Source: a virus. Taken from it: a stretch of DNA of 64,000 nucleotides. Position 1 is the stretch's first letter, and each line of letters starts with the position of its first letter. The notes under the pieces were generated by a model that worked only from the letters and a program-made list of their open reading frames with translations, did no database searches and had not been told where the DNA came from. Positions 3 through 54,704 of the stretch are shown piece by piece. A program made the translations under genes and the position numbers. The stretch is taken from the IMG/VR virus record IMGVR_UViG_3300046727_000675, positions 23,305 through 87,304 of that record. One strand, 5' to 3'.

Positions 3-527
3 AAGAAGCGCTGCCGGGACTTCGGGGAACGCGTCAAGTTTATCTGCGACGACGCCCAGAACTGGGTGCCGTGGCTGAACAACCCGCACTACGACCTGGC
101 GTACTCGTTCGGGGTTATTCACCACGTGGAACACCCGAAGACGGTTCTCGAGGCGATGCGCTCGGCGCTGAAGCCTGGCGGCGAACTGCGAGTCATGCTC
201 TACGCGCGGCGCAGCCTGAAGTTCCTGCTCGGCGAGCGGCCGGAGGCGCAGGCCGGGTGCCCGATCGTGAACTGGTACTCGGAGCGCGAGGCGCGGCGCC
301 TGGTCGAGTCCGCGGGCTTCGAGATCATGAGCGTCGAGAAGACGCACATCTTCCCGTGGCGCGTCAAGGACTACGTGAACCACAGGTACGTAATGAGGTG
401 GCCGTACCGGCTGATGAGCGAGGGGCTCTTCCGCTGGCTCGAGCGGCGCGCGGGGCACCACCTGCTGGTCATCGCGCGCAAGAAGATGGAGATCAAGTTC
501 AAGGACTCGATCGAGGTGAACTATTGA
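3..527 (+). CDS. Class I SAM-dependent methyltransferase (5' end outside window)
   Basis: Frame is open from the window start (KKRCRDFGERVKFICDDAQ...YDLAYSFGVIHH...LKPGGELRVMLY). These are typical Methyltransf_11-like post-motif segments. Confidence 0.85.
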   Translation, partial: KKRCRDFGERVKFICDDAQNWVPWLNNPHYDLAYSFGVIHHVEHPKTVLEAMRSALKPGGELRVMLYARRSLKFLLGERPEAQAGCPIVNWYSEREARRLVESAGFEIMSVEKTHIFPWRVKDYVNHRYVMRWPYRLMSEGLFRWLERRAGHHLLVIARKKMEIKFKDSIEVNY

Positions 528-868
528 GGCTGACGGAGCTCGAGCCGAAGTTCCTGAAGGTCACCGTGCCGAACAAGGAGTACGCCTACGTCGAGACCAT
601 CGCGGAGGCGGACGGGGTAGACTTCCTCTGCCCCGAGTGCTTCCGCAGGCGCGGCGAGGCCCGCGGCGTCCATGGGGTCATCTGCTGGCGGCCGGCGGTG
701 CCGTTGACGGAGAACATCGGCCCGGGGCGGTGGGAGCTGACGGGAAACAACTTTGAGGACCTGACGCTGGTCGCCGGGTCGAGTTCGGTGAAGCTGACGG
801 GCGGCTGCAACGCGCACTTTCTAATCGCGAATGGGGAGATCCAGTTCTGTGACGACTCAGGAAAATAG
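524..868 (+). CDS. Small Cys/His protein, DUF6527-like
   Basis: TTG start overlaps the upstream stop. FLCPEC ... GCNAHFLIANGEIQF resembles DUF6527 (recalled). Confidence 0.55.
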   Translation: MRLTELEPKFLKVTVPNKEYAYVETIAEADGVDFLCPECFRRRGEARGVHGVICWRPAVPLTENIGPGRWELTGNNFEDLTLVAGSSSVKLTGGCNAHFLIANGEIQFCDDSGK

Positions 869-2129: not shown

Positions 2130-2908
2130 GCATCAAGGGAAAGAGCCTGCACCTGCTGACGCCCATGTATGGCGGGGTCAACACGGTGAACTATTTCGAC
2201 GCGTTCCAGAAGCTGGTGATCGCGGTGCAGAAGTACGGCATCCCGTTCTGGTACTCGAACATCTGGAACGAGTCGCTGGTCACCCGCGCGCGGAACAAGC
2301 TCGCCGACACGTACCTGAAGGAGGGCGAGGCGACGCACGCCGTGTACATCGACGCGGACATCGGGTTCGACGCGGACGAGCTGCTGTCGATGCTCGAGCG
2401 CGAGGACGAGGACATCATCGTCGCGCCGTGCTCGAAGAAGAGCGTGCGCTGGGACCGGGTGCAGCGCATGATCCGGAAGAACCCGGGGCGCGAGTACACG
2501 GGCGAGGAGCTCCGCCGCGCCGGCGGCGACCTGGTCTTCAACTTCGAGGCGTTCGAGGGAGAGCGCACCTGGGACCTGCAGAAGATGTGGGACCTTCGCA
2601 ACGGCGGCACGGGCATCATGATGATCCGCCGAGGAGTGTTCGAGAAGTTTAAGCAGGAGTACCCCGACCGGTGGTACGAGCCGCGGTCGGACGACACGGT
2701 GCTCCCGGGGCCGATCCACGACTTCTTCCGCGCGGGCATCAACCCGGACACGCGCGAGTACGACTCGGAGGACTACTGCTTCTGCATCGACTGCAAGCGG
2801 ATCGGCTTCAGCGTCCGTCTGTGCCCGTGGGTGCGGACGACGCACATGGGGTCGAACCTGTTCTACGGCGACCTGCCGGCGGTCTCGAAGCTGGCGGGGG
2901 AGCTGTGA
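2126..2908 (+). CDS. GT-A-like glycosyltransferase
   Basis: TPMYGG, ESLVTRARN, YIDADIGF (DxD), GTGIMMIRR, SEDYCFC and a C-terminal THMG match the phage glycosyltransferase-like pattern. Confidence 0.75.
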   Translation: MSIKGKSLHLLTPMYGGVNTVNYFDAFQKLVIAVQKYGIPFWYSNIWNESLVTRARNKLADTYLKEGEATHAVYIDADIGFDADELLSMLEREDEDIIVAPCSKKSVRWDRVQRMIRKNPGREYTGEELRRAGGDLVFNFEAFEGERTWDLQKMWDLRNGGTGIMMIRRGVFEKFKQEYPDRWYEPRSDDTVLPGPIHDFFRAGINPDTREYDSEDYCFCIDCKRIGFSVRLCPWVRTTHMGSNLFYGDLPAVSKLAGEL

Positions 2909-29631: not shown

Positions 29632-30093
29632 ATGAACAGAAACACGGTGTACGTCGAGCTCGACTTTGCCGATGCTGACGACGCCACGCGGCCGGCGGTC
29701 GATCGTGCCATGGCGATCGCGAGGCGCGCCGCGAGGCTCGGCTGTGCGATTGTCGGCTATAATCATGAAGGACCGGGCGGCGGATGGCCGTCAGCCGCGT
29801 TCATGTGCCCGAACAGGAGCGTGGCCGATGCGTTGGTCACGCGTTTCTATGGCAACAAAGGCCGGGAGCCACTCGACTCATACATCGTCTTTGAGCCGCT
29901 TGACGCGGCGGAGGTGGCAAAGTCGCTCGACACCGCCATCGAGAACGGTTACGACGTGCTCGATGGGTGGACGGCGGCGGAGATCGCTGACGACCTCGCC
30001 TCGTACGATGCCGGCTTCGAGGGCGTGGACCCGCGAGCGATCGCGCCGCATGCGCAGTCATGGCTTGACGCGCGAAGGGCGGCGGTCCGATGA
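29632..30093 (+). CDS. Hypothetical protein
   Basis: RBS AGGAGG; first gene after P2. Confidence 0.7.
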   Translation: MNRNTVYVELDFADADDATRPAVDRAMAIARRAARLGCAIVGYNHEGPGGGWPSAAFMCPNRSVADALVTRFYGNKGREPLDSYIVFEPLDAAEVAKSLDTAIENGYDVLDGWTAAEIADDLASYDAGFEGVDPRAIAPHAQSWLDARRAAVR

Positions 30094-30740
30094 GCGTCGC
30101 TCCCTGGAAGCAGCCGGAGGAAGTCCCCATCTATATGCTGAAGGACGGGCAGCGGTTCCGCCTGAACTTCCTGGACGTGGGATCCGACCGGGTCGTGACG
30201 GGCACGCTCATCAGCGTCAACAAGTGCTCGGCGCACGTGGCGCTCGACGGGACCGGCGTCCGGTCGTTCACGGCGCACGGGGAGGACGGCGAGGAGCGCG
30301 AGGTCACGATGCCGGGGCGGGCGCACGAGACGTACTGGGCGCCGAACGCGCTGGTCGAGCCGGTGGACGAGTTTGTACCGTTGGAGCAGTTCGCAGACAA
30401 AGGAGGCCAAACAATGGCCAAGATCAAGAAGACACCGAAGGAGAAGAAGGCGAAGGAGCCGAAGCAGCTGCTGACCACGCGGTACGAGGTCACGGCGAAG
30501 TCGGCGGTGAACGCCGGGTACGCGGATCCGGAGAAGAAGACGCAGGCCGCGCTGATCTACCGCTTCGTGCGGGACGCGAAGACGCCCCCGACGTTCGCGG
30601 AGATCCTCGCCGGCATCGACAAGCGCAGCCTCAAGACGGAGTCCAAGAAGCTCGAGAACAACTTCCGCTGGTACATCAACGACCTGCGCAAGAAGGGGTT
30701 CGTCAAGTCCGTCGAGGAGCGCGAGCCCGCCGCCGCCTGA
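30090..30740 (+). CDS. Protein with Lys-rich linker and C-terminal winged-helix-like domain (internal start at 30414)
   Basis: In-frame AAGGAGG-N7-ATG at 30414; FAEILA...WYINDLRKKGFV. Confidence 0.65.
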   Translation: MSVAPWKQPEEVPIYMLKDGQRFRLNFLDVGSDRVVTGTLISVNKCSAHVALDGTGVRSFTAHGEDGEEREVTMPGRAHETYWAPNALVEPVDEFVPLEQFADKGGQTMAKIKKTPKEKKAKEPKQLLTTRYEVTAKSAVNAGYADPEKKTQAALIYRFVRDAKTPPTFAEILAGIDKRSLKTESKKLENNFRWYINDLRKKGFVKSVEEREPAAA

Positions 30741-30804
30741 GCAGGATCGCGGCCCGCGGCAGGCTCCTTTATGAGGGGGGCCTGACGAGGCCCACGATCC
30801 GACT

Positions 30805-31674
30805 ATGACCGGACACACCGCCGTCCCCGCGCCCGACCGCCGCGCGCTCGCGTCGTTCTGGGCGTTCGCGCTCGAGCGGCAGGCCGTCTGGCAGCGCCGC
30901 GCCCGCGGCCTGCCGCCGCCCTGGACCGACGACCCGGTCCTGCGCGCGCACAGGTTCACCAACATCTACCGGGAGCTCGACCGCGGCACGATCGCCGCGC
31001 ACCGCTACTACGCCGCCGAGGCGCGCCGGGGGAGCCCGCGCGACCTCGCGTGGCGCGCCGTGTGCTTCCGGCTGTTCAACCGCGCCGCGACGCTCCAGGA
31101 GGTCGACTTCCCGTCGTGCGCCGCGTGGCCGCGGATGCGCCGCGGCGCGCTCGACGCGCTGCGGGCCAGGTCCGCCGCCGGCCGGCCGCTGTACACGGGC
31201 GCCCACCAGGTGCGCGCGTGCACCGTGGACTGGGCCGGCGAGCTGCTCGACTCGGCGCACGCGTTCCTGCAGGGATGGGACTTCCGCGAGCGCGGCGCCG
31301 CCGCGTTCTACGCGGGCCTCAAGGAGGTCCGCTTCATGGGCGAGTTCCTCGGCCACCAGGTGTGCCGCGACCTCGCCGAGGAGGGCGCGCTCTCCGGCGG
31401 CCGCGACTGGTGCGTGGTCGGCCCCGGCGCGAGGGCCGGCCTGCGCCTGCTGTACGGCGCCGGCCTGCCGCGCGCCGCCGAGCCCGCCGCGATCGCGGCG
31501 CTGCTCGAGACGCAGTCGGTCCGCGCGCTCGTCGCCGCCGGAGGCCGCCGCATGCGGGCGCCGGAGGCGGAGCACGCGCTCTGCGAGTTCTTCAAGTACG
31601 ACCGGATCCGGAGCAGCGCCGGCTTCGCGCGCACCAAGGGCGGCCCGTTCCGCCCGAGCGAGGAGCCGCTGTGA
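30805..31674 (+). CDS. aGPT-Pplase1-like base-hypermodification protein
   Basis: ERQAVW.RR..G.PPPWTDDPVL...RFTNIYRELDRGT, G.FLGHQV..DL, GPGA..GL and EHALCEFFKY are recalled as the alpha-glutamyl/putrescinyl-thymine pyrophosphorylase clade 1 signature. Confidence 0.8.
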   Translation: MTGHTAVPAPDRRALASFWAFALERQAVWQRRARGLPPPWTDDPVLRAHRFTNIYRELDRGTIAAHRYYAAEARRGSPRDLAWRAVCFRLFNRAATLQEVDFPSCAAWPRMRRGALDALRARSAAGRPLYTGAHQVRACTVDWAGELLDSAHAFLQGWDFRERGAAAFYAGLKEVRFMGEFLGHQVCRDLAEEGALSGGRDWCVVGPGARAGLRLLYGAGLPRAAEPAAIAALLETQSVRALVAAGGRRMRAPEAEHALCEFFKYDRIRSSAGFARTKGGPFRPSEEPL

Positions 31675-33149
31675 GGGTCATCGCCATCAACAGCTACGCC
31701 GGATCGCTGCTGATCGCGGCGCGCATGGCCGGCGCCGAGGTCCTGTGGTCGCTCGAGGACCACGGCTACGCGAGGGAGACGCAGCGCGCCAACTTCCCGG
31801 GCGTGCCGTACCGGGCGGAGCCGCCCTGGCCCGACGAGGACCTGGCCGACGTCCCGGTCATCGCGCACCCGCCGTGCGCCGCGTTCTCCGTGCAGAACAC
31901 CGGCGCGCGCCAGGCCGCGTCCCGCGGCGTCGAGGGCGGCCACTTCAAGAGCACGAAGGCCGTCGTCGACTACGCGGTCGGCCGCGGCTCGCCGGCCGTG
32001 ATGATCGAGTCGGTGCCCGGCGCCTACGAGGGCACGCGCGGGTTCTACGACGGCATCGCGGCGGCGTCCGGGTACGGCGTCTACAGGATCCTGCAGAACG
32101 CCGCTGCGTTCGGCGTCCCGCAGTGGCGGCCGCGGTTCTGGTGCGTGCTGCTGCGCCCGGACCTCGCGGCGCGGCCGTTCGTCGTGCACCACCGGCCGGA
32201 GATGCGCACCGTCGCCGAGATACTCGAAGGCATCGATCCCGATGGCCCGGCCGTGAAGGCCGTCGTGCACGACTTCGACCGCACGGTCCGATCGCTTCGC
32301 GCCGCCGGCATCGCCGATGACGAGGCGGCCGCGCTGCTGCGCGGCGAGCACGGATATGGCCACCTGCACCGCGGCCTGCGAGCCGGCTTCGGCGTAAAGC
32401 TCACGACCGAGAACCGCACCGCGACGCTAAAGAAGTACGTGGGCATCAGCTTCAACTCCCAGATACCGCACATCCTGGACCCGACCGGCTCCTGCGCGAC
32501 GCTCATCAGGACGAGCATCTGGATACACAACGAGCGGCCGCTGCCGGCCGCCGGCTACTGCCGTCTGATGGGCTACCCCGACGGCTACGTCTTCAGGCCG
32601 GAGTCGGAGCGCCTCGCGCTCCTGTCCCGCGGCGTCGTGCCGGCGGTCGCGGCATGGCTGCTCGACACGGTCCGCCGCCACCTCGAGGACCGGCCGCCGG
32701 ACTCCGTCGAATACGGCGACTTCCTGTTCAACATGAAGCCGGGAGACACGGCGAACATGCTCATCACCGACGACGAGTTCCGGCAGACGAAACTGGACAT
32801 GGAGTCGCGCGACTCGCACGAGGATACGGCGAAGCGAGAACGATCGCCGCGCGCCGCGAGGCAGGCCGCGGCGCCGCGCGAGCCGCGCATCGGCGCCAGG
32901 TGGCGGCTCGCGAAGATCCCGGCGGCTCGCATGGAGTACGTGCGGAAGCTTATGTCGAGGGACTGCCGCACGCACAACGCGGCAGTGGCGAAGGCGCTCT
33001 CCGGCGAGCGCGGCGGGATCGCGTTCGACGAGATCATGGCCCGCGCAAGGGCCGACGGCTGGGAGACGACCAGCCCGAACCCGAGGGGCATCCTCAAGTG
33101 GCACCTGGACCTGCTGCGTAAGATGGGGATCGTGGAGGAGGCGAAGTGA
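31671..33149 (+). CDS. Divergent DNA (cytosine-5) methyltransferase with C-terminal wHTH
   Basis: Motif IV HPPCAAFS, motif VI variant IESVP, motif VIII GVPQWRPRFW, motifs IX-X RLMGYPD...SRGVVPAVA. Motif I is atypical (SYAG). Confidence 0.8.
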   Translation: MRVIAINSYAGSLLIAARMAGAEVLWSLEDHGYARETQRANFPGVPYRAEPPWPDEDLADVPVIAHPPCAAFSVQNTGARQAASRGVEGGHFKSTKAVVDYAVGRGSPAVMIESVPGAYEGTRGFYDGIAAASGYGVYRILQNAAAFGVPQWRPRFWCVLLRPDLAARPFVVHHRPEMRTVAEILEGIDPDGPAVKAVVHDFDRTVRSLRAAGIADDEAAALLRGEHGYGHLHRGLRAGFGVKLTTENRTATLKKYVGISFNSQIPHILDPTGSCATLIRTSIWIHNERPLPAAGYCRLMGYPDGYVFRPESERLALLSRGVVPAVAAWLLDTVRRHLEDRPPDSVEYGDFLFNMKPGDTANMLITDDEFRQTKLDMESRDSHEDTAKRERSPRAARQAAAPREPRIGARWRLAKIPAARMEYVRKLMSRDCRTHNAAVAKALSGERGGIAFDEIMARARADGWETTSPNPRGILKWHLDLLRKMGIVEEAK

Positions 33150-33496
33150 CGCGGTCCGAGATCATGTCGCGGATCCGGTCGGTCAGCGCGCTCGAGGCCG
33201 AGGCCCGGCCGATCGCGTCCCGCCGCGCGGGCTGCCGGCTGCGGCACCAGCCGAAGGGGATCCACGGCCGCCCGGACTACGCGAACAAGGCGAGGCTCAC
33301 CGCGGTGTTCGTCCACGGCTGCTGGTGGCACCGCTGCCCCGCGCACTTCAAGGCGCCGAAAACAAACAGGAAATTCTGGGCAAGGAAGTTCGCGCGGAAC
33401 GTCGCGCGGCACCGCGAGGTGTCCCGCGCGCTGCGGCGCCGCGGGTGGCGCGTCTTGACGATATGGGAGCACGAGGTAAGGGGGAGGAAGCCGTGA
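33146..33496 (+). CDS. vsr: Very-short-patch repair endonuclease
   Basis: MSRIRS, GRPD, VFVHGCWWH, PKTNRKFW..K...N and GWRVLTIWEHE; follows the C5-MTase. Confidence 0.9.
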   Translation: MTRSEIMSRIRSVSALEAEARPIASRRAGCRLRHQPKGIHGRPDYANKARLTAVFVHGCWWHRCPAHFKAPKTNRKFWARKFARNVARHREVSRALRRRGWRVLTIWEHEVRGRKP

Positions 33497-34413
33497 AGAC
33501 GATCGTACTCGAGGGGCCCGACGGGAGTGGCAAGACGACGCTCGCGGCCGCGCTCGAGAGGCTCGGCTACGCCCGCGCGCACCGCGGGGTCCCGAAGCCG
33601 GGCCTGACCCCGGAGGGGATGATGTGGACGTACCTCGCGCCGCTGCTGCCGGCGCGGGGGAGCGACGGCCTGCGGGTGTTCGACCGCCTGCACCTCGGAG
33701 AGACCGTGTACGGCCCCGTCATGCGCGGCGGCTCGCAGCTCACGGAGCTGGGCGCGGCGCTCATCGACTCGTACGTCGAGGCGATCGACGGGCAGGTCGT
33801 CGTGTGCCTGCCGCCGTGGCGGTTCGTGCTCGCGAACTGGCTGCGCACCAAGAAGGACCAGTACGTGCGGACGCCGCGGCAGCTGCTGCGGATATACCAG
33901 GGCTACCAGCGGCTGCTGTTCGGCGCGAAAAAGAACCGCGACTACCTCCACTTCGACTACACGCGGCACGGGGCGGCGACGGTCGCGGCCGCGCTGCGGG
34001 CGCTCTCCGGGTTCCCGCTGCCCGCGGACTGCGCCGGCTCGCAGCGGCCGCGGTTCGTCTTCGTCGGGGACCGCGCCGGGCGCGACGGACCCGACCTCCC
34101 GTTCATGTCGTGCGACGGGCCGGCCGGCTGGCTCCACGGGTGCCTCGCCGACGCCGGCTACCAGTGGCACGAGACCGCGTTCGCCAACGCGCTCGACCCC
34201 GGCGGGCTCCCGCACAACCTGTCGCAGCTCGCGACGCGGTTTCCGGCGCGGCCGAGGTTCGTGGCGCTCGGCGCCGAGGCCGACCGCGGGCTGAACGCGG
34301 CGCTGATCGAGCACCACGCGCTGGGGCACCCGCGGGACGCGGCCGGGAGCAGGGGACGCGCGCGGTACGTGCGCGCGCTGGCGGACATCCGCCGGGGGAC
34401 GAGGACGCGATGA
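33493..34413 (+). CDS. dNMP-kinase-like P-loop protein fused to a uracil-DNA-glycosylase-like domain
   Basis: LEGPDGSGKTT and FDRLHLGETVYG in the N-terminal half. FVGDRAG...PF, N, VALG..A and HP in the C-terminal half (UDG-like pattern, less certain). Confidence 0.72.
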   Translation: MKTIVLEGPDGSGKTTLAAALERLGYARAHRGVPKPGLTPEGMMWTYLAPLLPARGSDGLRVFDRLHLGETVYGPVMRGGSQLTELGAALIDSYVEAIDGQVVVCLPPWRFVLANWLRTKKDQYVRTPRQLLRIYQGYQRLLFGAKKNRDYLHFDYTRHGAATVAAALRALSGFPLPADCAGSQRPRFVFVGDRAGRDGPDLPFMSCDGPAGWLHGCLADAGYQWHETAFANALDPGGLPHNLSQLATRFPARPRFVALGAEADRGLNAALIEHHALGHPRDAAGSRGRARYVRALADIRRGTRTR

Positions 34414-34610
34414 TGGAAAAATACGGAAACATAGTGGTGATGGCGCCGTTCATTTTATTTTGGCTTTGTATGATGTTTGAGCGTCTTCCCGCGCGCTGTT
34501 GCTACTGCCGGCGGTGGAGTTGGATGTTCAAGATGCAGGACGTAGTATTTTCAGGAAACGGACCTGAGTCTTGCGAGGCGGGACGTTGCCATCCTGGATG
34601 CGCGCGATGA
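34410..34610 (+). CDS. Small Cys-rich membrane protein (AT-richer insert)
   Basis: ATGA overlaps at both ends; N-terminal hydrophobic helix; CCYC...C...CH..C. Confidence 0.55.
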   Translation: MMEKYGNIVVMAPFILFWLCMMFERLPARCCYCRRWSWMFKMQDVVFSGNGPESCEAGRCHPGCAR

Positions 34611-35482
34611 TCATCCGGGGCGGGGACGTCTACGAGGCGTGGCGGCAGCTGCTGTGGCAGCTCACGGTGAACGGCCGCGAGGTGTCGCCGCGCGGGCTCG
34701 CGACCAAGGAGATTCTCGGGGTGCAGCTCCGCATCGACGACGCCTACCACAACATCATCGCCGACCCGGTTCGGAGGCTCAACTTCCGCTTCCTCGTGGC
34801 CGAGATGATCTGGATGGCGGCGGGGCTCGACGACCTCGCGCCGCTGACGCGCTACAACAGGGAGATGGCGAAGTTCTCGGACGACGGCGCGAGGCTCGCC
34901 GGCGCCTACGGGCCGCGGCTCGCGCAGCAGTGGACCTACGTCGTCGACACGCTGCTGTACGACGCAAGCTCGCGCGGCGCGGTGAGCGGAATCTGGCGCT
35001 GGCCGCAGGGGCGGTCGAAGGACGTCCCGTGCACGCTTTCCATGCAGTGGCTCATCCGCGCCGGGCTCCTCGAGACGATCGTGACGATGCGCAGCTCCGA
35101 CGCCTGGCTCGGGATCCCGTACGACGTGGCCTCGTTCACCTTCCTCTCGAACCTGCTCTGCTGCTCGCTGAACGAGACGCGCCCCGAGCTGAACCTGCGG
35201 CTGGGCGGCCTCATCATGAACCTCGGCTCGTCGCACCTCTACGGGCCGAACTGGGAGGCCGCGTACAAGATCGCGGACCTGGGGCTCGGCCGCTCCGTCA
35301 AGAGCCCCCCGATCATCGAGTCGGCGCCGCTCGCGGCCGTCGCGCAGAGCCTGGTGAACGACGCCGATCCCGCGTGGGACCTGCTGGAGGGCCCGTGGCT
35401 GTCGTGGGCGCGCTGCCTGCGGGCCGGCACCAGCGAGAAGGCGCGGGTCATCCTCGAGGAGCTGGAGGACGGCCGTGCGTGA
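34607..35482 (+). CDS. Thymidylate-synthase-family enzyme, probable dCMP (hydroxy)methylase
   Basis: GAYGPRL, SR.AV, catalytic DVPC, MRSSDAWLGIPYD and SSHLY. Asp sits where dUMP-specific ThyA has Asn (PFN). Confidence 0.8.
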   Translation: MIIRGGDVYEAWRQLLWQLTVNGREVSPRGLATKEILGVQLRIDDAYHNIIADPVRRLNFRFLVAEMIWMAAGLDDLAPLTRYNREMAKFSDDGARLAGAYGPRLAQQWTYVVDTLLYDASSRGAVSGIWRWPQGRSKDVPCTLSMQWLIRAGLLETIVTMRSSDAWLGIPYDVASFTFLSNLLCCSLNETRPELNLRLGGLIMNLGSSHLYGPNWEAAYKIADLGLGRSVKSPPIIESAPLAAVAQSLVNDADPAWDLLEGPWLSWARCLRAGTSEKARVILEELEDGRA

Positions 35483-35933
35483 GAGCCGCGAGGCGTACTT
35501 CGTCAAGATGCTGGGGCTCGTCGCCGCGCGCTCGACCTGCGCGCGGCGCGCGGTCGGGGCGATCATCACCGACGTCCAGGGCCACGTGCTGTCGATGGGC
35601 TACAACGGCGTGCCGTCCGGGGTCGCTCACTGCGTGGCCGGCGAGCGCACGTGCGACGGCTTCCAGGACCCGAAGGGCGACGTCCGGCGGTGCCTCGCGG
35701 TGCACGCCGAGCAGAACGCGCTGCTGCAGTGCTCGCGGCTGGACCTGGCGCACACGGTCTACGTCAGCTGCACGCCGTGCTTCGCGTGCGCGAAGATGAT
35801 CCTGAACACGCCGATCGCGCGCGTCGTCGCCGTCGCGCCGTACGTCGGCGACGACCTCGGGCAGGAGCTGCTGGTGAGACGGGAGAGGCTTTTCTACTAT
35901 GACGCAGACGCAGACCTCGCTGTCCTTTACTGA
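35475..35933 (+). CDS. dCMP deaminase
   Basis: RSTC.RRAVGA, GYNG, HAEQNA and PCFACAK zinc motifs. Confidence 0.92.
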   Translation: MRESREAYFVKMLGLVAARSTCARRAVGAIITDVQGHVLSMGYNGVPSGVAHCVAGERTCDGFQDPKGDVRRCLAVHAEQNALLQCSRLDLAHTVYVSCTPCFACAKMILNTPIARVVAVAPYVGDDLGQELLVRRERLFYYDADADLAVLY

Positions 35934-37764
35934 CGGGACAAGCTTCGGCCCCGCCGGGGACCGCGGACCGCGGCGCCAGGGGTCGGGGCTGAGGCCCGAC
36001 GCGCTGCCGGACCAGTTCCCGGAGGGCGCGTGGCCCGCGATCGACGTGGAGTCGGACGGGCTCGGCCGCGACGCGCTGCCGGTCGGCATCGTCGTCGCGA
36101 CGGCCGACGAGTCGCGCTACTTCCCGTTCGGGCACGCGGAGGGGCGGCAGCATGACCCGAAGGCCGTGCGCGTGTGGTGCGAGGAGCACCTGGCCGGCGA
36201 GGACCTGATCTTCCGCAACGCGAAGGGCGACCTCGACTGGCTGCGCCGGTGGGGGCTCGACCTCGAGGCGCTCGGCGCGCGGCCGCACGAGATCCAGCAC
36301 CCCGCCGCGCTGCTCGACGACCGCCGCCGCAAGTTCAAGCTCGAGGACCTGGCGCAGGACCGCCTGGGCCGCGGCAAGCTGGCGCCGCCGCCGGGCAAGA
36401 TCCACGAGTTGCCGGCCGACGTGGTCGCGCCGTACGCGCGCGAGGACGGGCGTCTGACCCGCGAGTGCTGGTTCAGCTACCTGCCGGACATCGAGCGCGA
36501 GGGGCTCGGCGAGGTGCTGGCGCTCGAGGACGGCTTGATCTGGTCGACCATGGCGATGGAGCGCGCCATGGCGCCGATCGACGCGCCGAAGCTCGAGCGG
36601 TGGATAGCCGAGGTGACGGCCGAGCACCAGAAGCGGCTGATGGACATCTGGCGCCTGACCAAGTTGCGCGTGAACCCGGACTCGGGCCGGGACATGCGCA
36701 AGTTCTTACAGAACTTCGGCGTCGCGCACACGGGCTTCACGACCGAGAAGGGGAACGAGGCCTTCACCGAGGAAGCGCTGCTGCGCCACTCGGGACGCTA
36801 TGAAGGAGACGGAAAAGATCGAAGATGGGTTATCACGAACCCGGCGGTCCACGCCGCGCTCGAGGCGCGGCAGCTCGCGTCGCTGCTCTCGAAGTACCTG
36901 CTGAAATACCGGGACGCGCTGCTGCCCGGCGGCCTCCTGCCGTACCAGCTGCACCAGCTGCGCGGCGACGAGAACGGCACGATCACCGGGCGCTACGCGT
37001 CGTCGAAGGTGAACATCCAGCAGGTCTACAAGCCGGATAAGCAGCCGGCCCTGACGCAGCGGTGGGTCATCCGCGAGCTGTTCCTCGCCGGCGAGGGCGC
37101 GGACCTGCTCGACGCCGACGCGAGCCAGATCGAGTACCGGCTGTTCGCGCACAACTCGTCGGTGCCGCCGCCGCACTCGACGCGCCTCATCGAGGCCTAC
37201 AACGACGACCCGGACACGGACTTCCACCAGCTCGTGACCGACGAGATCCTGCAGAACGTAATGGAGCGCGTGTACGCGAAGAACTGGAACTTCCGCAAGC
37301 TCTACGGCGGCGGCGTGGCCAAGTCGGCCGCGATGACGGGTCTTCCGCTCGAGCGGTGCAAGGAGATGGACGCGCAGTACGACCGCCGCTTCCCCGAGGC
37401 CACGCGCCTGCTGCGCTTCTGCGAGCGGCTCGCCGAGCGGCGCGGGTACGTGAAAACGATCTCCGGCCGGCGGTCGCGCTTCCAGGAGGGCGACCGGTTC
37501 TACAAGGCGCTGAACTCGGTGCTGCAGGGGTCAGCGGCGGACATCATGAAGAAGAAGATCCTGCGGCTGTACAACGAGCGCAAGACCCTCGAGATCGTCC
37601 TGCGCGCGACGGTGCACGACGAGGTGTGGGGCGATCGAAAAAATAAGAGCAAGAAGTCAGCGAGGCTGCTCGAAGAGTGCTTCGCCGTGCAGGAGTACAA
37701 GCTCAACGTGCCGATCACGTGGAGCATCGGCTACGGCAAGAACTGGGCGGAGGCGATGACGTGA
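35899..37764 (+). CDS. DNA polymerase family A with 3'-5' exonuclease
   Basis: Exo AIDVES / NAKGD / YAREDG; TITGRYASS..NIQQ; motif A DASQIEYR; motif B RVYAKNWNFRKLYG; motif C VHDE. Confidence 0.95.
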   Translation: MTQTQTSLSFTDGTSFGPAGDRGPRRQGSGLRPDALPDQFPEGAWPAIDVESDGLGRDALPVGIVVATADESRYFPFGHAEGRQHDPKAVRVWCEEHLAGEDLIFRNAKGDLDWLRRWGLDLEALGARPHEIQHPAALLDDRRRKFKLEDLAQDRLGRGKLAPPPGKIHELPADVVAPYAREDGRLTRECWFSYLPDIEREGLGEVLALEDGLIWSTMAMERAMAPIDAPKLERWIAEVTAEHQKRLMDIWRLTKLRVNPDSGRDMRKFLQNFGVAHTGFTTEKGNEAFTEEALLRHSGRYEGDGKDRRWVITNPAVHAALEARQLASLLSKYLLKYRDALLPGGLLPYQLHQLRGDENGTITGRYASSKVNIQQVYKPDKQPALTQRWVIRELFLAGEGADLLDADASQIEYRLFAHNSSVPPPHSTRLIEAYNDDPDTDFHQLVTDEILQNVMERVYAKNWNFRKLYGGGVAKSAAMTGLPLERCKEMDAQYDRRFPEATRLLRFCERLAERRGYVKTISGRRSRFQEGDRFYKALNSVLQGSAADIMKKKILRLYNERKTLEIVLRATVHDEVWGDRKNKSKKSARLLEECFAVQEYKLNVPITWSIGYGKNWAEAMT

Positions 37765-37916
37765 CACGGCTTAGGCTTAAGAAGATAAAATGTCTCTCTG
37801 CCCGCAAGAACCGGCGCGGCGGCGCGTGCGTTTGCCGGCGCGAAGTGTCCCATGACGGCGATTGCCGGTGCTCGCGCTGCAAAAAAACATGGAATAGAAA
37901 GAGAGGAACAAACTGA
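37761..37916 (+). CDS. Small basic Cys-rich protein
   Basis: GTG overlaps the polymerase stop; CVCRREVSHDGDCRCSRC. Confidence 0.5.
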   Translation: MTRLRLKKIKCLSARKNRRGGACVCRREVSHDGDCRCSRCKKTWNRKRGTN

Positions 37917-37917
37917 C

Positions 37918-39189
37918 ATGGCGACAGAACCCCTGATCAACTGCCCGAAGTGCGGCGCCGAGATCGCGGTGACCGAGGCCCTCGCGGGCCCGATCGTCAA
38001 GCGGCTCGAGGCCGAGACGAAGAAGAAGCTCGACCTGCAGGCCGACGCGCTGAAGAAGCGCGAGCAGGCGCTCGCGGCGGGCGAGGCGGCCGTCGAGCAG
38101 ACGGTGCGGCAGCGGCTCGCGGCCGAGTCCCAGCGCGTCGAGGCCGGGCTGCGCGCGGAGATCAGCGGCGAGCTCGGCGCGTCGTACGAGAAGTCGAAGA
38201 AGCTCGCCGAGGACGCGCTCGCCGCGGAGCGCCGGCGGGCCGAGGGCCGCGAGGCCGAGCTGCGCGGGCTGACGGCGAAGCTCGCCGAGGCCCAGGAGGC
38301 GCAGGCCGGGGCGGAGCGGGCCCGGCGCGACTTCGAGGAGAAGACGCGCGAGCTGAACCTCACCGTGGAGCGCCGCGTCACCGAGGAAGCCGACCGGCTG
38401 CGGTCGCGGCTCACGGAGGAGATCACCGGCGCCGAGCGGACGAAGCTCGCCGAGAAGCAGCACACGATCGACCAGATGGCGTCGCAGATCGAAGACCTGA
38501 AGAAGCGCGCCGAGCAGGGCAGCCAGCAGCTGCAGGGCGAGGCCCAGGAGCTCGTGCTCGAGTCGGACCTTCGCCTGGCGTTCCCGACCGACGAGGTCGA
38601 GCCGGTCGGCAAGGGCGTCCACGGCGCCGACTGCGTGCAGCGCGTGGTCACGGTCGCTGGCGCCGCGGGCAGGATCCTGTGGGAGTCGAAGCGCACGAAG
38701 AACTGGGGGCCGGATTGGCTCGCGAAGCTGCGCGACGACTGGCGGAGCTCGGGCGCCGACGTGGCGGTGATCGTGTCGCAGGCGCTGCCGGAGGGGGTCG
38801 CGACGTTTGCGCTGGTCGAGGGCGTCTGGGTGTGCGCCCCGGCCTACGCGGTGCCTCTGGCCGCCGCGCTGCGCCAGGCCATCACGGGGATCGCGAAGGC
38901 GCGCGCGGCGCAGGCCGGTCAGCGCACGAAGGCGGAGCTCGTCTACGCGTACCTGACCGGCGACGGCTTCCGCCACCGGATCGAGGCGATCGTCGAGCGG
39001 TTCGGCGGGCTGCGCGAGGACCTGGAGAAGGAGGAGAAATTCATGACCAAGCAGTTCGCGAAGCGGCGCGAGACGCTGGCGCAGGCCGTGACGAGCCTCG
39101 GCGGCCTCTACGGCGACTTGGAGGGCATCGCCGGCGCGGCGGTCGCCGAGCTCCCGGCGCTGTCGCTCGGGACGGGGGAGGAATCATAA
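37918..39189 (+). CDS. DUF2130-family coiled-coil/nuclease-fold protein
   Basis: N-terminal CPKCG, long coiled coil, GSQQLQGE..E, FPTD..VGKG..GAD and ESKRTK.W...W..KL. Confidence 0.8.
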   Translation: MATEPLINCPKCGAEIAVTEALAGPIVKRLEAETKKKLDLQADALKKREQALAAGEAAVEQTVRQRLAAESQRVEAGLRAEISGELGASYEKSKKLAEDALAAERRRAEGREAELRGLTAKLAEAQEAQAGAERARRDFEEKTRELNLTVERRVTEEADRLRSRLTEEITGAERTKLAEKQHTIDQMASQIEDLKKRAEQGSQQLQGEAQELVLESDLRLAFPTDEVEPVGKGVHGADCVQRVVTVAGAAGRILWESKRTKNWGPDWLAKLRDDWRSSGADVAVIVSQALPEGVATFALVEGVWVCAPAYAVPLAAALRQAITGIAKARAAQAGQRTKAELVYAYLTGDGFRHRIEAIVERFGGLREDLEKEEKFMTKQFAKRRETLAQAVTSLGGLYGDLEGIAGAAVAELPALSLGTGEES

Positions 39190-41690: not shown

Positions 41691-42143
41691 ATGAAGACCG
41701 ATGAGAACAACGTGGTCCGCCTCGAGAAGCGCGATCGCGCCAAGGACTGGGCCGCGCTCGTCGCGGATCACTACCGCGCGCGGGGCGAGTTCATCCCGTA
41801 CGGGCCGGTGCTGCCGATCAGGCCGGAGGTCGCGTTCATGCGGCTGCGCCTCATGATCACGGAGCTCGGCGAGGTGGCCGACGCGCTCGCCGAGGCGAAC
41901 CGCGAGAAGCTGGCCGACGGGCTGTGCGACCTGCTGTACGTCGTCGTCGGCACGGCCGTGGTCACTGGCTTCGGGCCGCTGCTCGACGAGCTGTTCCGCG
42001 AGGTGCACCGGTCGAACATGACCAAGGACTTCTCGGTCTCCGTCGCCCCCGGCGAGAAGTACGCGCCGGGGGTCGGCAAGGGCGCCGGCTACGAGCCGCC
42101 GCGCCTCGCGGAGATCATAAAAAGGCAAGGAAACAAAGGCTAA
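41691..42143 (+). CDS. MazG/PRA-PH-like NTP pyrophosphohydrolase
   Basis: ELGEV...DGLCDLLYV..G...EVHRSNMTK...GYEPP. Confidence 0.85.
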   Translation: MKTDENNVVRLEKRDRAKDWAALVADHYRARGEFIPYGPVLPIRPEVAFMRLRLMITELGEVADALAEANREKLADGLCDLLYVVVGTAVVTGFGPLLDELFREVHRSNMTKDFSVSVAPGEKYAPGVGKGAGYEPPRLAEIIKRQGNKG

Positions 42144-42579: not shown

Positions 42580-43058
42580 CCGCGCGCAAGTTCAAGCCGC
42601 TCGCCCAGCTGACGGTCGAAGAAGAAAAAGTATGGCAGCAGGCGTTCGGATACCACCTCGACTCCGGCAAGCAGGGCCAGGACCGCGCCGGCGCTCGCGC
42701 CTGGCGCGACGTGCAGAAAGAATTTCCGCGGCTGAAGGACTACCGCGGCGCGCTGCCGACCGAGGCCGCCGATCTCAAGCACGTGCCTGTAATTTCAGAT
42801 GCGGCCACCCGTCGTCGCGTCACGCGCTACCTCGGCACCTGCGCGAACGGCCGGCGCACGCGGGTCGAGCTGACCTTCGACATACTGACCCCCTTAAAAA
42901 CCCCCGACCCGGCCGTCGACGAGGTGCTGCTCCTCGACCTGGTCGACCACGTGTCGTTTCACCTGATGGACGCGCACGACGTGCCCGGGTTCGAGCTGTC
43001 CAGCTTTCGCGCCGGCAGCGATCGCGGCCGCGGCTTCGAGATGAGGAGCGTGGTATGA
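42576..43058 (+). CDS. Hypothetical protein
   Basis: ATGA-coupled at both ends. Confidence 0.6.
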   Translation: MTARKFKPLAQLTVEEEKVWQQAFGYHLDSGKQGQDRAGARAWRDVQKEFPRLKDYRGALPTEAADLKHVPVISDAATRRRVTRYLGTCANGRRTRVELTFDILTPLKTPDPAVDEVLLLDLVDHVSFHLMDAHDVPGFELSSFRAGSDRGRGFEMRSVV

Positions 43059-43603
43059 CCGAGGAGCTCAAGATCAAGACTTTCCAGACCATCTATGCCG
43101 ACCCGCCGTGGTTCGAGTCCGGCGGCGGCCAGATCGTGCGCGGCGCGCAACGTCACTACCCGCTGATGAAGACCGACGCGATCTGCCGGCTCGAGATCCG
43201 CGAGGGCATCTCCGTGAAGTGGCTCGCCGCGGAGAACGCGCACCTCTACATGTGGGTGACCAACAACTTCCTGCGCGACGGGCTGAAGGTGATGGAGGCC
43301 TGGAACTTCGAGTACAAGACGATGATCACCTGGGCCAAGGACCGCATCGGCCTCGGCCAGTACTTCCGCGGGCAGACCGAGCACGTGCTGTTCGGCGTGC
43401 GCGGGAACCTGCCGTACCGCACGCGGGAGTCCGACGGCAAGCGCGCGCAGGGCACGACCCTCATCACGGCCCCCCGCGGCGAGCACAGCGTGAAGCCGGA
43501 GGAGATGCGCCAGATGATCGAGCTCGTCTCGCCCGGGCCGTACGTCGAGCTGTTCGCGCGGCGGCCGGCGCCGGGCTGGTCAGTCTGGGGGAACGAGGTA
43601 TGA
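43055..43603 (+). CDS. MT-A70 family amino-methyltransferase (likely DNA m6A)
   Basis: YADPPW, HYPLM, LYMWVTN, GLGQYFRGQTE, HSVKP, ELFAR and WGNE. Confidence 0.92.
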   Translation: MTEELKIKTFQTIYADPPWFESGGGQIVRGAQRHYPLMKTDAICRLEIREGISVKWLAAENAHLYMWVTNNFLRDGLKVMEAWNFEYKTMITWAKDRIGLGQYFRGQTEHVLFGVRGNLPYRTRESDGKRAQGTTLITAPRGEHSVKPEEMRQMIELVSPGPYVELFARRPAPGWSVWGNEV

Positions 43604-47296: not shown

Positions 47297-47752
47297 ATGG
47301 CCGCTAAGAACCAGTGCGCCGCTGTCTACGGAGGAACGAGCGCCGCGCGGGGCGGTCGCTGCCGGCTCGAGGCGGGTCACGACGGGCGGCACCAGACCCA
47401 CGGAATTGTCGTGGGCCCGTCGGGGAGCGGCCCCGTCCAGGATGGATCACAAGGTTTTTTCTTCGTTGATTCTGAGCGCTCCGACCTGCGCGACCAGCAC
47501 GTCGAGCGCGAGATTAAAACGGGCGCGCGGCAGGACCCGACGGTCAACCACCCGGCGCACTACGCGCCGGGCGGGAACATGACCTTCGAGGCGATCAACG
47601 TGATCGACGCCTGGGGGCTCGGCTTCGCGCTCGGCAACTGCGTGAAGTACGTCTGCCGCGCGGGGCGCAAGACGCCGTCGGCGCTGACCGACCTGCGCAA
47701 GGCGCTGTGGTACCTGCAGCACGAGATCAAGAGACTGGAGGACGAGACATGA
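47297..47752 (+). CDS. DUF3310 domain protein
   Basis: VNHPAHY...EAI..I...GF.LGN..KY..RAG.K...DLRKALWYL. Confidence 0.88.
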   Translation: MAAKNQCAAVYGGTSAARGGRCRLEAGHDGRHQTHGIVVGPSGSGPVQDGSQGFFFVDSERSDLRDQHVEREIKTGARQDPTVNHPAHYAPGGNMTFEAINVIDAWGLGFALGNCVKYVCRAGRKTPSALTDLRKALWYLQHEIKRLEDET

Positions 47753-48414
47753 GAATCATCGACCCGCGGGTCGACCTGATGGACCCGGAGGACCGCGTCG
47801 CGGGGATCCGGCTGCTGCGCAAGATCGAGGCCTACGCGCGCATCAGCCACAGGAGCGAGGGCCGGCAAGACGAGCAAACCTGGGAGCGGTTCATTAAGGC
47901 CGTGGTCATCGAGCACGGGGACTGGTCGGTCGTCGAGCACGCGTCGGCGTCGGCCGTGTTCCGCGTCTCGCGCGGGGTCACCCACGAGCTGGTGCGGCAC
48001 CGGATGATGTCGTTCACACAGGAGTCCACGCGTTTCGTTAACGGCCGGAAGAGCTACCCGAACGGGCTCGAGTTCATCGATCCGATTGAAGTGAAAGACG
48101 TGCTGGACCTCGAATGGATGCACGCATCTTACGCCGATAATGAGCGCTACTATTTCAATCTTTTGGAGCATGGCGTCCGCCCGCAGGAGGCGCGCGCGGT
48201 CCTGCCGAATGCGCTCGCGGCGACGATCGCCGTCACGGGGAACCTCCGCGCCTGGCGGCACGTGCTGCGCATGCGCACGACGCGCGAGACGCACCCCGAC
48301 TTCAGGCGCGTGATGGCCAGGCTGCTCGCCGACTTCAAGGCGCGCGTACCGATCCTGTACGACGACATCATCCCGAACGGGCCGCAAGCCGACGCGGTGA
48401 GGCTCCCGTGCTGA
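47749..48414 (+). CDS. thyX: FAD-dependent thymidylate synthase
   Basis: SVVEH, SRGVTHELVRHR..SFTQESTR (RHRx7S), EARAVLP and NLRAWRH. Confidence 0.95.
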   Translation: MRIIDPRVDLMDPEDRVAGIRLLRKIEAYARISHRSEGRQDEQTWERFIKAVVIEHGDWSVVEHASASAVFRVSRGVTHELVRHRMMSFTQESTRFVNGRKSYPNGLEFIDPIEVKDVLDLEWMHASYADNERYYFNLLEHGVRPQEARAVLPNALAATIAVTGNLRAWRHVLRMRTTRETHPDFRRVMARLLADFKARVPILYDDIIPNGPQADAVRLPC

Positions 48415-54122: not shown

Positions 54123-54704
54123 ATGTACTCGCAGCGCGACGAGGAGAAGGTGATCCTGGGCTACTTCGGAAATTTCGCCGGGCGGTTCCTGGAGGTCGGG
54201 GCCTACGACGGCCTCACGGCGTCGAACACGCTGGCGCTGGTCGAGCGCGGCTGGTCGGGCGTGATGGTCGAGCCCGCGCCCGTCTACTTCATGAAGCTGC
54301 TCGACCGCCACGCGGCGAACCCTCGCCTCGCGCTCGTGAACGCGGCGCTCGGCGCGGCGGACGAGTTCCGCCCGTTCCACTACACGGAGCGCGGCGGGAT
54401 CTCGACCTTCGACGACGCCTGCCGCGACGCGTGGAAGGACGCCTGCGGGGACTACCGCGACTACCTGGTCCCGGTCGTCGCGGCCGCGCGCTTCTTCGCG
54501 GCGTTCCCGGGGCCGTACGACTTCGTCTCGGTCGACGCCGAGGGCCTCGACCTGGAGATCGTCCGGGCGCTGCCGCTCGCCGGCGTGCGCCTGGCCTGCG
54601 TCGAGACGGGGCGCGACGAGCCGGCGATCGCGGCGCTTCTGGCCGCGGCCGGGCTCCGGAAGATCCACCAGACAGCGGAGAACGGGCTCTTCGCGCGAGA
54701 TTAA
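54123..54704 (+). CDS. FkbM family methyltransferase
   Basis: MYSQ..E, FLEVGAYDG...SNT, GWSGVMVEP, VSVDAEGLD and CVE. Confidence 0.88.
   Translation: MYSQRDEEKVILGYFGNFAGRFLEVGAYDGLTASNTLALVERGWSGVMVEPAPVYFMKLLDRHAANPRLALVNAALGAADEFRPFHYTERGGISTFDDACRDAWKDACGDYRDYLVPVVAAARFFAAFPGPYDFVSVDAEGLDLEIVRALPLAGVRLACVETGRDEPAIAALLAAAGLRKIHQTAENGLFARD

Follow-up and report, generated by a model that had tools for sequence, protein, structure and literature searches.

A metagenomic phage gene run predicted to make 5-hydroxymethylcytosine, with unusual PF18723, C5-methyltransferase-like and Vsr additions

We analyzed a gene run of a metagenome-derived phage that carries the enzyme set of a predicted pathway for making a modified cytosine nucleotide and incorporating it into DNA. 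The run lies in a window of 64,000 nucleotides (positions 23,305 to 87,304 of the virus record IMGVR_UViG_3300046727_000675), which makes up the final 64 kb of an IMG/VR record with one contig of 87,304 bp and about 68% G+C, classed as linear by IMG/VR and given a completeness of 100% by CheckV. Submission of window positions 30000-38000 to megablast against 50,697 deposited phage records gave no match, and no close cultured relative was found. Genes were called from an analysis of the reading frames by third-position G+C (GC3) combined with lists of open reading frames (ORFs), and were assigned with Pfam and PHROGs, which agree with each other. The genes and features of the run, together with two further genes of the predicted pathway, are as follows (window coordinates; TS, thymidylate synthase; MTase, methyltransferase; UDG, uracil-DNA glycosylase).

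30090-30740, + strand: 216-aa protein of unassigned family, called from its GC3 frame; no Pfam or PHROG match above threshold
30805-31674, + strand: PF18723 protein, 289 aa; Pfam E=7.8e-42
31671-33149, + strand: C5-MTase-like protein, 492 aa; PF00145 E=1.3e-11
33146-33496, + strand: Vsr-type T:G mismatch endonuclease, 116 aa; PF03852, TIGR00632, phrog_13076
33493-34413, + strand: fusion of a kinase and a UDG-fold domain, 306 aa; family profile and structure model, Pfam giving a P-loop hint only
34433-34450, + strand: terminator-like hairpin; consensus scan only, not evidence of function
34598-35482 (alternative TTG start at 34571), + strand: TS homologue, 294 aa; PF00303 E ~1e-16
35475-35933, + strand: dCMP deaminase, 152 aa; PF00383 E=1.3e-16, phrog_174
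35899-37764, + strand: PolA (family A DNA polymerase), 621 aa; PF00476 E=4.5e-43
41691-42143, + strand: MazG/PRA-PH-type NTP pyrophosphohydrolase, candidate dCTPase; PF01503 E=2.3e-10, PF03819
47749-48414, + strand: ThyX, flavin-dependent thymidylate synthase; PF02511 E=3.3e-39

The genes from the PF18723 protein to PolA are all present as named in an earlier note on this DNA, which had been drawn up from the sequence alone and had described a single coupled run. The coupling was observed at five junctions, where starts and stops overlap by 4 bp in three cases (31671/31674, 33146/33149 and 33493/33496), by 8 bp between the TS homologue and the dCMP deaminase (35475/35482) and by 35 bp between the deaminase and PolA (35899/35933). 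The unity of the run is broken by a gap of 184 bp (34414-34597) before the TS homologue, the only sizeable one. Since this gap holds a terminator-like hairpin and a promoter-like site, both consensus matches only, the run 30805-37764 may form two transcription units.

The TS homologue, the sole gene of the Thymidylat_synt type in the genome, has MilA, a CMP 5-hydroxymethylase, as its best match among solved structures (E=3.1e-23); it matches E. coli TS at E ~1e-9 and the T4 dCMP hydroxymethylase at E=3.5e-6. The signature residues were read from a HMMER alignment to E. coli TS and MilA. The Asp of GIPYD aligns with E. coli TS Asn177 and with the Asp of MilA, which bears out the cytosine-type assignment that had been proposed from an Asp at the PFN position. 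The Asp of SKDVPC aligns with Leu143, the Asp of RSSD with Asp169, which is thus kept, and VPCT aligns to APCH, so that the catalytic Cys (E. coli C146) is also kept. Asp177 and this Cys are found in all 120 of the best 120 of 946 homologues, and an alignment of 25 relatives shows little or no variation at positions 143, 169 and 177. Replacement of Asn177 by Asp is reported to switch the substrate of TS to dCMP (PMC8670742), an acidic residue at position 143 to go with hydroxymethyl and not methyl products, and a change of Asp169 to Asn to mark the 5-hydroxy-dCMP synthases (both PMC13326640). Because Asp177, Asp143 and Asp169 are read against these published rules, the signature is that of a dCMP hydroxymethylase, with 5-hydroxymethyl-dCMP (5hm-dCMP) as the predicted product and not 5-methyl- or 5-hydroxy-dCMP. 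A 5-hydroxy-dCMP synthase of the RB69 gp48 type was considered and rejected, as Asp169 is kept and invariant in the 25 relatives. Likewise, a route to 5-hydroxymethylcytosine (5hmC) through a methyltransferase and a TET enzyme was rejected, as the genome gave no Tet_JBP match.

The protein encoded at 33493-34413 combines a kinase (residues 1 to ~172) with a UDG-fold domain (~173-306). We found 16 homologues, one of them with precomputed Thymidylate_kin and UDG domains. A profile built from a 10-member family matches YorR of SPbeta (2axp, E=1.9e-15); six of these ten members match Thymidylate_kin and four match UDG, the window protein not being among the latter. In the AlphaFold model (mean confidence, pLDDT, 88), residues 1-185 resemble YorR (Z 13.6) and thymidylate kinases (Z 11.3; Foldseek E ~1e-5), and residues 173-306 resemble the family 4 UDG of T. 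maritima (1l9g; Z 11.1, root-mean-square deviation (rmsd) 2.5, 131 residues aligned), UdgX (6ail; Z 10.8), 1mtl (Z 8.3) and the UDG domain of phiLo PolA (Z 9.5, rmsd 2.3, 117 aligned). The kinase has the P-loop GPDGSGKT. In the UDG-fold domain, motif A reads VGDRAG against VGERAN in the family, and F-x-N-A and the HP of motif B are found in the alignment. The model confirms a nucleotide-kinase fold and a UDG fold, the latter being a predicted glycosylase. When compared with the 5-hydroxymethyl-deoxyuridine (5-hmdU) DNA kinase of PaMx11, the kinase aligned at the P-loop only (34 columns, probability 84%), and with the "thymidylate kinase" located beside the hydroxymethylase of a Manatee Spring phage over 75 columns (probability 96.8%).

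Together, these enzymes would replace dC by 5-hydroxymethyl-dC before replication, as in T4. The MazG-type pyrophosphatase would convert dCTP to dCMP, the Asp-type TS homologue, judged by its residue signature and its relatives, would convert dCMP to 5hm-dCMP, and the kinase domain of the fusion, by analogy with T4 gp1 and RB69 gp159, would produce the diphosphate. A host kinase would then supply the triphosphate for incorporation by the phage PolA. The dCMP deaminase and ThyX would keep dTMP supplied; the earlier suggestion that a separate ThyX can do this agrees with the strong match at 47749-48414. The UDG-fold domain and Vsr would remove deamination-derived U, hydroxymethyluracil (hmU) or T opposite G, and the 5hmC in DNA would be further processed, the candidates being the coupled PF18723 and C5-MTase-like proteins, both of which are predicted to attack C6 of a pyrimidine through a Cys. 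This core pathway is well supported, both by signatures in the sequences and by experiments confined to relatives. The gene set (TS homologue, kinase, MazG, PolA) fits a pre-replicative route to modified dCTP, as had been proposed. We consider it highly probable that a modified dCMP is made and incorporated and, if so, likely that it is 5hm-dCMP.

To see how widespread the core module is, we used an alignment-based scan, since the single TS protein used as a query gave no related loci. The scan yielded 449 IMG/VR contigs with this TS clade, and neighbors were counted within 10 kb of the TS gene in the best 80 of the 449 loci. These 80 loci carry a dCMP deaminase in 66 cases, PolA in 53, the kinase in 52 (of which 38 matches reach into the UDG-fold part), MazG in 35, the C5-MTase-like gene in 17, ThyX in 13, PF18723 and the 216-aa protein in 2 each, and Vsr in none. 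Four loci (L033, L074, L046 and L048) show the gene order of the window without PF18723 and Vsr. This survey of neighborhood conservation, which the earlier note had called for, shows that the kinase-TS-deaminase-PolA module recurs. Among the deposited phages, the pair of kinase-UDG and TS genes was found in Stenotrophomonas phage AXL3 and Pseudoxanthomonas phage PW916, and AXL3 has the kinase-UDG, TS, dCMP deaminase, NTP pyrophosphatase and ThyX set of the window. Of 37 restriction enzymes, only 2, whose sites consist of A and T, are reported to cut AXL3 DNA, and none of the 35 enzymes with G/C-containing sites does so (PMC7504290). In the MetaGPA study, Asp177 TS, PRA-PH and dCMP deaminase genes are described as co-occurring on contigs selected experimentally for modified cytosine (PMC8670742). 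The core pathway is thus of a known and widespread kind, linked experimentally to modified cytosine in relatives, and the description of the operon as new does not hold for this core. PF18723, the odd MTase-like family and Vsr are unusual additions to it.

A second methyltransferase type stands at many of these loci. A Methyltransf_23 gene alone is found in 39 of the best 80 loci, the C5-MTase-like gene alone in 15, both in 2 and neither in 24, so that 56 carry one or the other and the two types come close to excluding each other. The Methyltransf_23 protein, which has a weak UbiG-like match, is also encoded a few kb from the Asp-type TS in L002, L004 and L064. The L064 gene (L064:7126-8406) has a LAGLIDADG endonuclease domain in its N-terminal part. 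AXL3 gp31 and PW916 ORF63, both annotated as methyltransferases, lie at the same place as Methyltransf_23.

The C5-MTase-like protein matches PF00145 with 45 bits (cut-off 22) over a catalytic part of about residues 1-345, followed by a tail of about 150 aa. Its best PDB match is M.HhaI, which the subfamily profile reaches at E=1.5e-12, and its score with the NCBIfam dcm model is 21.7 bits for a cut-off of 100.65. The catalytic Pro-Cys, the Glu of motif VI, the QxRxR of motif VIII and the motif II Glu that binds the ribose of S-adenosylmethionine (SAM) are kept; all 18 sequences taken from the loci have HPPC, ESV and PQWRPR. Four motifs depart from the canonical ones in this subfamily, again in each of these 18 sequences:

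motif I: Y[AG]GS[LI], canonical FxGxG (third Gly lost)
motif IV: HPPC[AS], canonical PCQ
motif VI: ESV, canonical ENV
motif X: LS[KR]GV, canonical GN

The family comprises 171 clusters among 1.84 billion representatives, and the motifs were read in the best 150. Where the motif was found, HPPC[AS] occurs in 133 and HPPC in 134 of 136 representatives, and the motif X [KR]G in 123 of 128; ESV occurs in 144 of 150. Of the representatives with the motif found, ~96-98% therefore lack the Gln of motif IV and the Gly-Asn of motif X. None of the alignments to M.HhaI, E. coli Dcm and 8yf3 reaches motif X, where Lys/Arg-Gly stands in the expected place of Gly-Asn. Gln82 and Asn304 of M.HhaI are the residues that engineers replaced to fit bulky transfer groups, and Q82A is reported to lower methylation 16-fold (PMC3526304).

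The family is nearly absent from the 50,697 deposited phage records, with one weak match, and its look-alikes in the ESM Atlas are all viral. In a reciprocal scan we obtained 27 viral loci with a C5-MTase-like gene, of which 18 have an Asp-type TS, none an Asn-type TS, and 20 the kinase. In L030 and L218, a PF18723 gene again precedes the C5-MTase-like gene, at ~30% identity. L218 is a 2.7-kb contig on which the kinase follows the C5-MTase-like gene, and the L030 protein has 607 aa with a weak Phage_Mu_F match in its tail. A motif search among 25 long members of the family revealed no fusion to PF18723 or to the kinase. A C5-methyltransferase cannot methylate a cytosine that is already substituted at position 5. 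Because the linkage to the hydroxymethylase module is tight and conserved, the pocket is altered and 5hmC has no free C5, the sequences suggest that the protein acts otherwise on 5hmC or uses another cofactor.

The protein encoded at 30805-31674 matches PF18723 (Pfam "HMUDK_hel", formerly aGPT-Pplase clade 1) with 144 bits for a cut-off of 25, over profile positions 3-276 of 281. This full-length match, recovered again by a search of the genome itself, agrees with the family that had been proposed for it. Four elements (PWTDDP, RExD, a GPG hairpin and C260-E261) are invariant in 20 of 20 aligned homologues and all are present in the window protein. By sequence, no PDB match was obtained at E<=10, and Foldseek gave none at E<=0.001 (E>0.1). 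A second look at the model (pLDDT 86) with VIA-align, from which the following Z scores come, gave the 5-PmdU glycinyltransferase gp46 of PaMx11 as best match (Z 10.7, rmsd 4.0, 220 aligned), followed by helix-hairpin-helix (HhH) glycosylases (Z 7.5-9.3). The top 18 rows all belong to the HhH superfamily, after which Z drops from 6.3 to 3.1. The model thus has an all-helical, HhH glycosylase-like fold related to clade 2, and the invariant Cys aligns with the region of the catalytic Cys of clade 2 (gp46) in a weak hhalign match (probability 31%). Activity is reported for clade 2 (PF18724) only, and the clade 1 protein gp55 of M6 is described as dispensable in lysate reconstitution (PMC8989533).

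The earlier note had supposed that a family normally linked to thymine may decorate the modified cytosine of this phage. This supposition was not borne out, as the enzymes that decorate thymine are the clade 2 PF18724 protein and the 5-hmdU DNA kinase, and neither is found in the genome. PF18724 (amino-acid:DNA transferase, AADT) gave no match at E<=1 and a best tblastn E of 1.1, and a query of the PaMx11 gp49-type DNA kinase for 5-hmdU (5-HMUDK) gave a best tblastn E of 1.3 in the 87-kb genome. The gp49 query finds homologues in 7 of 18 PF18723 loci; a Tmk-like DNA kinase of a type other than gp49 may be present in the genome. PaMx11 also has a PF18723 member, gp50, flanked by gp49 (the DNA kinase) and gp51 (the dUMP hydroxymethylase).

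We then examined the TS type that accompanies PF18723. Among 83 viral PF18723 loci, 74 have an Asn-type TS (68 of them without a gp49 or gp46 match), one has an Asp-type TS (L004), three have no TS and five have a TS whose motif was unread by the pattern, one of these being the contig of L064, which is of Asp type. The 80 metagenome loci, half of them on contigs shorter than 8 kb, comprise 41 with Asn, one with Asp (L237), 3 unread and 35 without TS. Beyond the window, PF18723 thus accompanies an Asp-type TS in L004, L030, L064, L237 and, by implication, L218. The combination is rare and, judged by the sequences, appears to have arisen more than once. Pairs of TS and clade 1 genes near a polymerase are already noted in pelagiphages (PMC9599517). 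A "cytosine subclade" of PF18723 is not claimed, as the trees conflict: with 20 sequences, the window protein, L004, L007 and L064 split off with support 100/99 on long branches, and in a FastTree of 97 sequences the same grouping has a support of 0.26-0.71, with L030, L218 and L237 placed elsewhere.

Three other PF18723 proteins have distinct architectures. P0138 (585 aa), the one fusion of its type found, naturally joins a thymidylate-kinase-like domain (PF02223) to PF18723, and its kinase aligns with the window kinase family over 70 columns (probability 91.5%). This fusion hints that Tmk-like kinases and PF18723 can act together, and is a lead, not proof of a DNA-kinase role. P0137 and P0139 (804 and 600 aa) are long proteins with low-complexity N-terminal regions, P0139 having a Cys-rich, zinc-finger-like C-terminus, and both look like eukaryotic-type architectures.

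Vsr matches PF03852 (E=8.8e-11, 41.9 bits for a cut-off of 27) and scores 91.7 bits with TIGR00632, just below the cut-off of 97.85. With E. coli Vsr it shares 40% identity (E=3e-22), the PD and HGC.WH segments being part of the match. Since none of the 80, 83, 80 and 27 loci surveyed above (0 of 270) carries Vsr, it is a private addition of this phage. With an intact Vsr and a UDG fold that is real in the model, the repair role that had been ascribed to the two is a reasonable prediction.

Taking these results together, our best explanation is a pre-replicative replacement of dC by 5hmC followed by probable further tailoring, to which, as a whole, we give a probability of about 0.6. Whether the base is further tailored on DNA we regard as evenly balanced, and a part for PF18723 in this tailoring is proposed tentatively and is somewhat doubtful. 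Five observations argue for tailoring: the C5-MTase-like gene goes with an Asp-type TS in 18 of its 27 loci and never with an Asn-type one; one of the two methyltransferase types stands at 56 of the best 80 Asp-type TS loci, with both in 2; the catalytic Cys, Glu and Arg are retained and the motif IV Gln and motif X Gly-Asn mostly lost, and changes at these positions are reported to enlarge the M.HhaI pocket (PMC3526304); the PF18723-C5-MTase-like order recurs in L030 and L218; and the modeled PF18723 fold is nearest to the gp46 transferase, its invariant Cys aligning weakly with the catalytic Cys region there. Several points weigh on the other side. Full replacement by 5hmC leaves a C5-methyltransferase without a free C5, and a Dcm-like gene overlapping vsr is most simply read as ordinary 5-methylcytosine (5mC) formation with very-short-patch repair, a reading that presupposes unmodified C. 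Of the best 80 Asp-type TS loci, 78 lack PF18723, so that the module does without it, and the kinase and AADT of the thymidine pathway are absent from the genome. Co-occurrence may reflect shared ancestry and not function. As for the TS homologue, the rules for L143 and D169 are correlations from one paper and its references, and the closest solved relative, MilA, acts on CMP and not dCMP.

A bolder extension is that the four coupled genes at 30805-34413 form a counterpart, on the cytosine side, of thymidine hypermodification that would act on the 5hmC of DNA. The Tmk-like kinase with its fused UDG fold and PF18723 would flip the base and activate the 5-hydroxymethyl group, and the C5-MTase-like protein, with its catalytic Cys, enlarged pocket and basic motif X, would replace or alkylate this group, for instance through O-methylation, giving 5-methoxymethylcytosine, or through the transfer of a different nucleophile, with Vsr repairing deamination products. 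Among the papers searched, none mentions 5-methoxymethylcytosine under this name or four variants of it. We consider this extension unlikely. If it were true, the Asp-type TS modules of hundreds of uncultured phages and of AXL3 would make an undescribed alkylated or methylated derivative of 5hmC, and two interchangeable methyltransferase types would serve these modules.

The alternative that survives best, which we find rather improbable, keeps 5hmC and dispenses with tailoring: the C5-MTase-like protein and Vsr would be an ordinary Dcm/Vsr-type pair acting on unmodified C, either in phage DNA made early or as a result of incomplete replacement, and PF18723 would be an accessory DNA-binding or repair protein. 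In its favor, the MTase-like gene and vsr overlap as dcm and vsr do in E. coli, the MTase-like protein retains its covalent-catalysis residues and, in motif II, the Glu for binding the ribose of SAM, and PF18723 is both rare (2 of the best 80 Asp-type TS loci) and reported as dispensable in vitro in M6 (PMC8989533). However, a MTase-Vsr pair is not the rule, as all other loci surveyed lack Vsr, and an ordinary Dcm-type enzyme is at odds with a subfamily that is bound up with TS modules of the Asp type (18 of 27 loci, against 0 with the Asn type), has conserved non-canonical pocket motifs and is almost without relatives in the deposited phage records (1 weak match in 50,697).

The next alternative is a genome with 5mC, as in XP12, in which the TS homologue would be a dCMP methylase, the dCMP deaminase would turn 5-methyl-dCMP (5m-dCMP) into dTMP, and Vsr and the UDG-fold domain would handle the T:G mismatches that arise from 5mC deamination. 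Vsr is the classic enzyme for 5mC deamination damage, which favors this reading, and Asp177 taken alone also fits a dCMP methylase (PMC8670742). Nevertheless, position 143 is Asp and not a bulky hydrophobic residue (rule from PMC13326640), the closest solved relative is the hydroxymethylase MilA (E=3.1e-23), and ThyX makes a route from 5m-dCMP to dTMP unnecessary. A 5mC genome is thus very unlikely.

The deaminase could also act later, on 5hm-dCMP, so that the resulting 5hm-dUMP would bring hmU into DNA and PF18723 would act as in the thymidine-hypermodifying phages. The overlap of the deaminase gene with the end of the TS gene is compatible with this route, which the earlier note had offered as an alternative, as is the usual company of PF18723, i.e. 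dUMP hydroxymethylases in 74 of the 83 viral and 41 of the 80 metagenome loci. Yet a deaminase beside an Asp-type TS is general even without PF18723 (66 of the best 80 loci, 64 of the 80 having no PF18723 within reach), ThyX supplies normal dTMP, no 5-HMUDK or AADT is found in the genome, and no dTTPase or dUTPase was found among the families scanned. The route has no specific support and we hold it to be highly improbable.

Least probable, to the point of being barely credible, is a CmoX-like transfer of carboxymethyl from carboxy-SAM (Cx-SAM) to cytosine C5, in which the motif X Lys/Arg would hold the carboxylate: the Lys/Arg-Gly at the canonical Gly-Asn (123 of 128 representatives with the motif found) recalls SpCmoX, whose Arg350 is reported to replace HhaI Asn304 and to bind the Cx-SAM carboxylate (PMC12783734), and the subfamily profile reaches 8yf3 at E=1.1e-7, but motif IV is HPPC and not the CmoX-defining SPPC (PMC12783734), a free C5 would be needed, in conflict with full replacement by 5hmC, and CmoA (TIGR00740), a frequent but not obligatory partner of CmoX, was found neither in the genome nor in the records of 4 relatives, in a search whose control was positive in 12 of 14 genomes.

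The preferred reading, 5hmC with probable tailoring, places the window next to several known systems. With the T4 5hmC pathway (gp42, gp1, gp56 dCTPase, cd) it shares the logic and the enzyme classes, i.e. a TS-family enzyme with Asp177 and Asp143, a nucleotide kinase, an NTP pyrophosphatase, a dCMP deaminase, a separate thymidylate synthase and a polymerase of its own. It differs from T4 in that its TS homologue is near MilA and far from gp42, its kinase is YorR/Tmk-like and fused to a UDG fold, its dCTPase candidate is of the MazG/PRA-PH type, dTMP would come from ThyX and no glucosyltransferase is adjacent. The MetaGPA contigs, AXL3 and PW916 have the same module in the same order (kinase-UDG, TS, deaminase, NTP pyrophosphatase, ThyX) with a Methyltransf_23 or carbamoyltransferase partner, where the window has the C5-MTase-like, PF18723 and Vsr genes.

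The thymidine clusters described for M6, PaMx11, ViI, SP10 and PhiW-14 (PMC5889632, PMC8989533) share with the window a PF18723 gene located by a hydroxymethylase, a polymerase and a deaminase. Their hydroxymethylase is of the Asn (dUMP) type, whereas that of the window, its sole TS homologue, is of the Asp type, and their chemistry relies on a P-loop 5-hmdU DNA kinase and PF18724, both missing here. As in E. coli Dcm-Vsr, the end of a C5-MTase-family gene overlaps vsr, but the window protein has altered motifs I, IV, VI and X. SpCmoX (8YF3; PMC12783734) likewise has a C5-MTase fold, and its basic residue in the place of the canonical Asn may correspond to the motif X Lys/Arg seen here; the window protein is distant from it, has HPPC for SPPC, and is accompanied by no CmoA or amide ligase that we could find. 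Finally, the PolA-UDG of SP15-like phages (PMC13697223) is another case of a UDG fold in the replication module of a phage with modified pyrimidines, there fused to PolA and associated with modified T, here fused to a kinase and associated with predicted modification of C.

Phage DNA that is hypermodified withstands restriction enzymes and CRISPR nucleases, and such modifications have been a source of useful enzymes. For thymidine the route has been worked out (5hmU, kinase, transferase), and on the cytosine side the sources cited here describe only glycosylation, carbamoylation and carboxymethylation. The 449 contigs of the TS clade and the 171 clusters of the MTase-like family represent a large uncharacterised phage set, and the latter family offers natural pocket changes at the positions that engineers mutate in M.HhaI to accommodate bulky groups. 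AXL3, which is cultured and has heavily restriction-resistant DNA, makes the question directly testable. The presence of PF18723 beside a cytosine-type enzyme provides a context that may help to assign a function to this widespread protein.

Upstream of the run, the earlier note had placed a winged-helix gene at 30414-30740. The reading frame exists, but it is only the C-terminal half of a longer ORF (30090-30740), in which GC3 is high in one frame over 30150-30740, and the winged-helix hints in the 216-aa product are sub-threshold (Mrr_N E=0.037, LexA_DNA_bind 0.15; HTH_20 0.0055 in the L033 homologue). The L033 and L074 homologues span residues 11-216, and a homologue lies upstream of the C5-MTase-like gene in 4 of the 27 loci. 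The C-terminal half (30414-30740) has a weak similarity to the tail of the C5-MTase-like protein (32700-33149), with 25% identity over 57 aa (E=8e-4).

Several other genes were observed around the run. Directly after PolA lies a DUF2130 protein (37918-39189, E=9.6e-64) with a weak N-terminal zinc-ribbon match; an MT-A70 methylase of the N6-adenine type (E=6.9e-23) is encoded at 43055-43603 and an FkbM-family methyltransferase at 54123-54704, and an SNF2 helicase lies elsewhere in the window. At the end of the contig (window 63092-64000) is an NrS-1 polymerase HBD domain and at its start (C1:47-1468) a D5_N/DUF5906 primase-helicase, which suggests that one gene or module was split when a circularly permuted genome was linearised. 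Finally, a glycan gene cluster stands inside the structural module, about 30 kb from the modification genes (C1:18266-26212, i.e. L168:266-5025 plus window 66-2908). It includes a GT-B-like Glyco_trans_1_2 glycosyltransferase, a polysaccharide pyruvyl transferase, a CE4 deacetylase, a weak GT-D-like match, a GT2 protein, a Methyltransf_23 protein, a UDP-glucose/GDP-mannose dehydrogenase and a weak Anp1-like GT-A match. This cluster may serve the glycosylation of virion proteins, and in a phage with predicted 5hmC it could also serve that of DNA.

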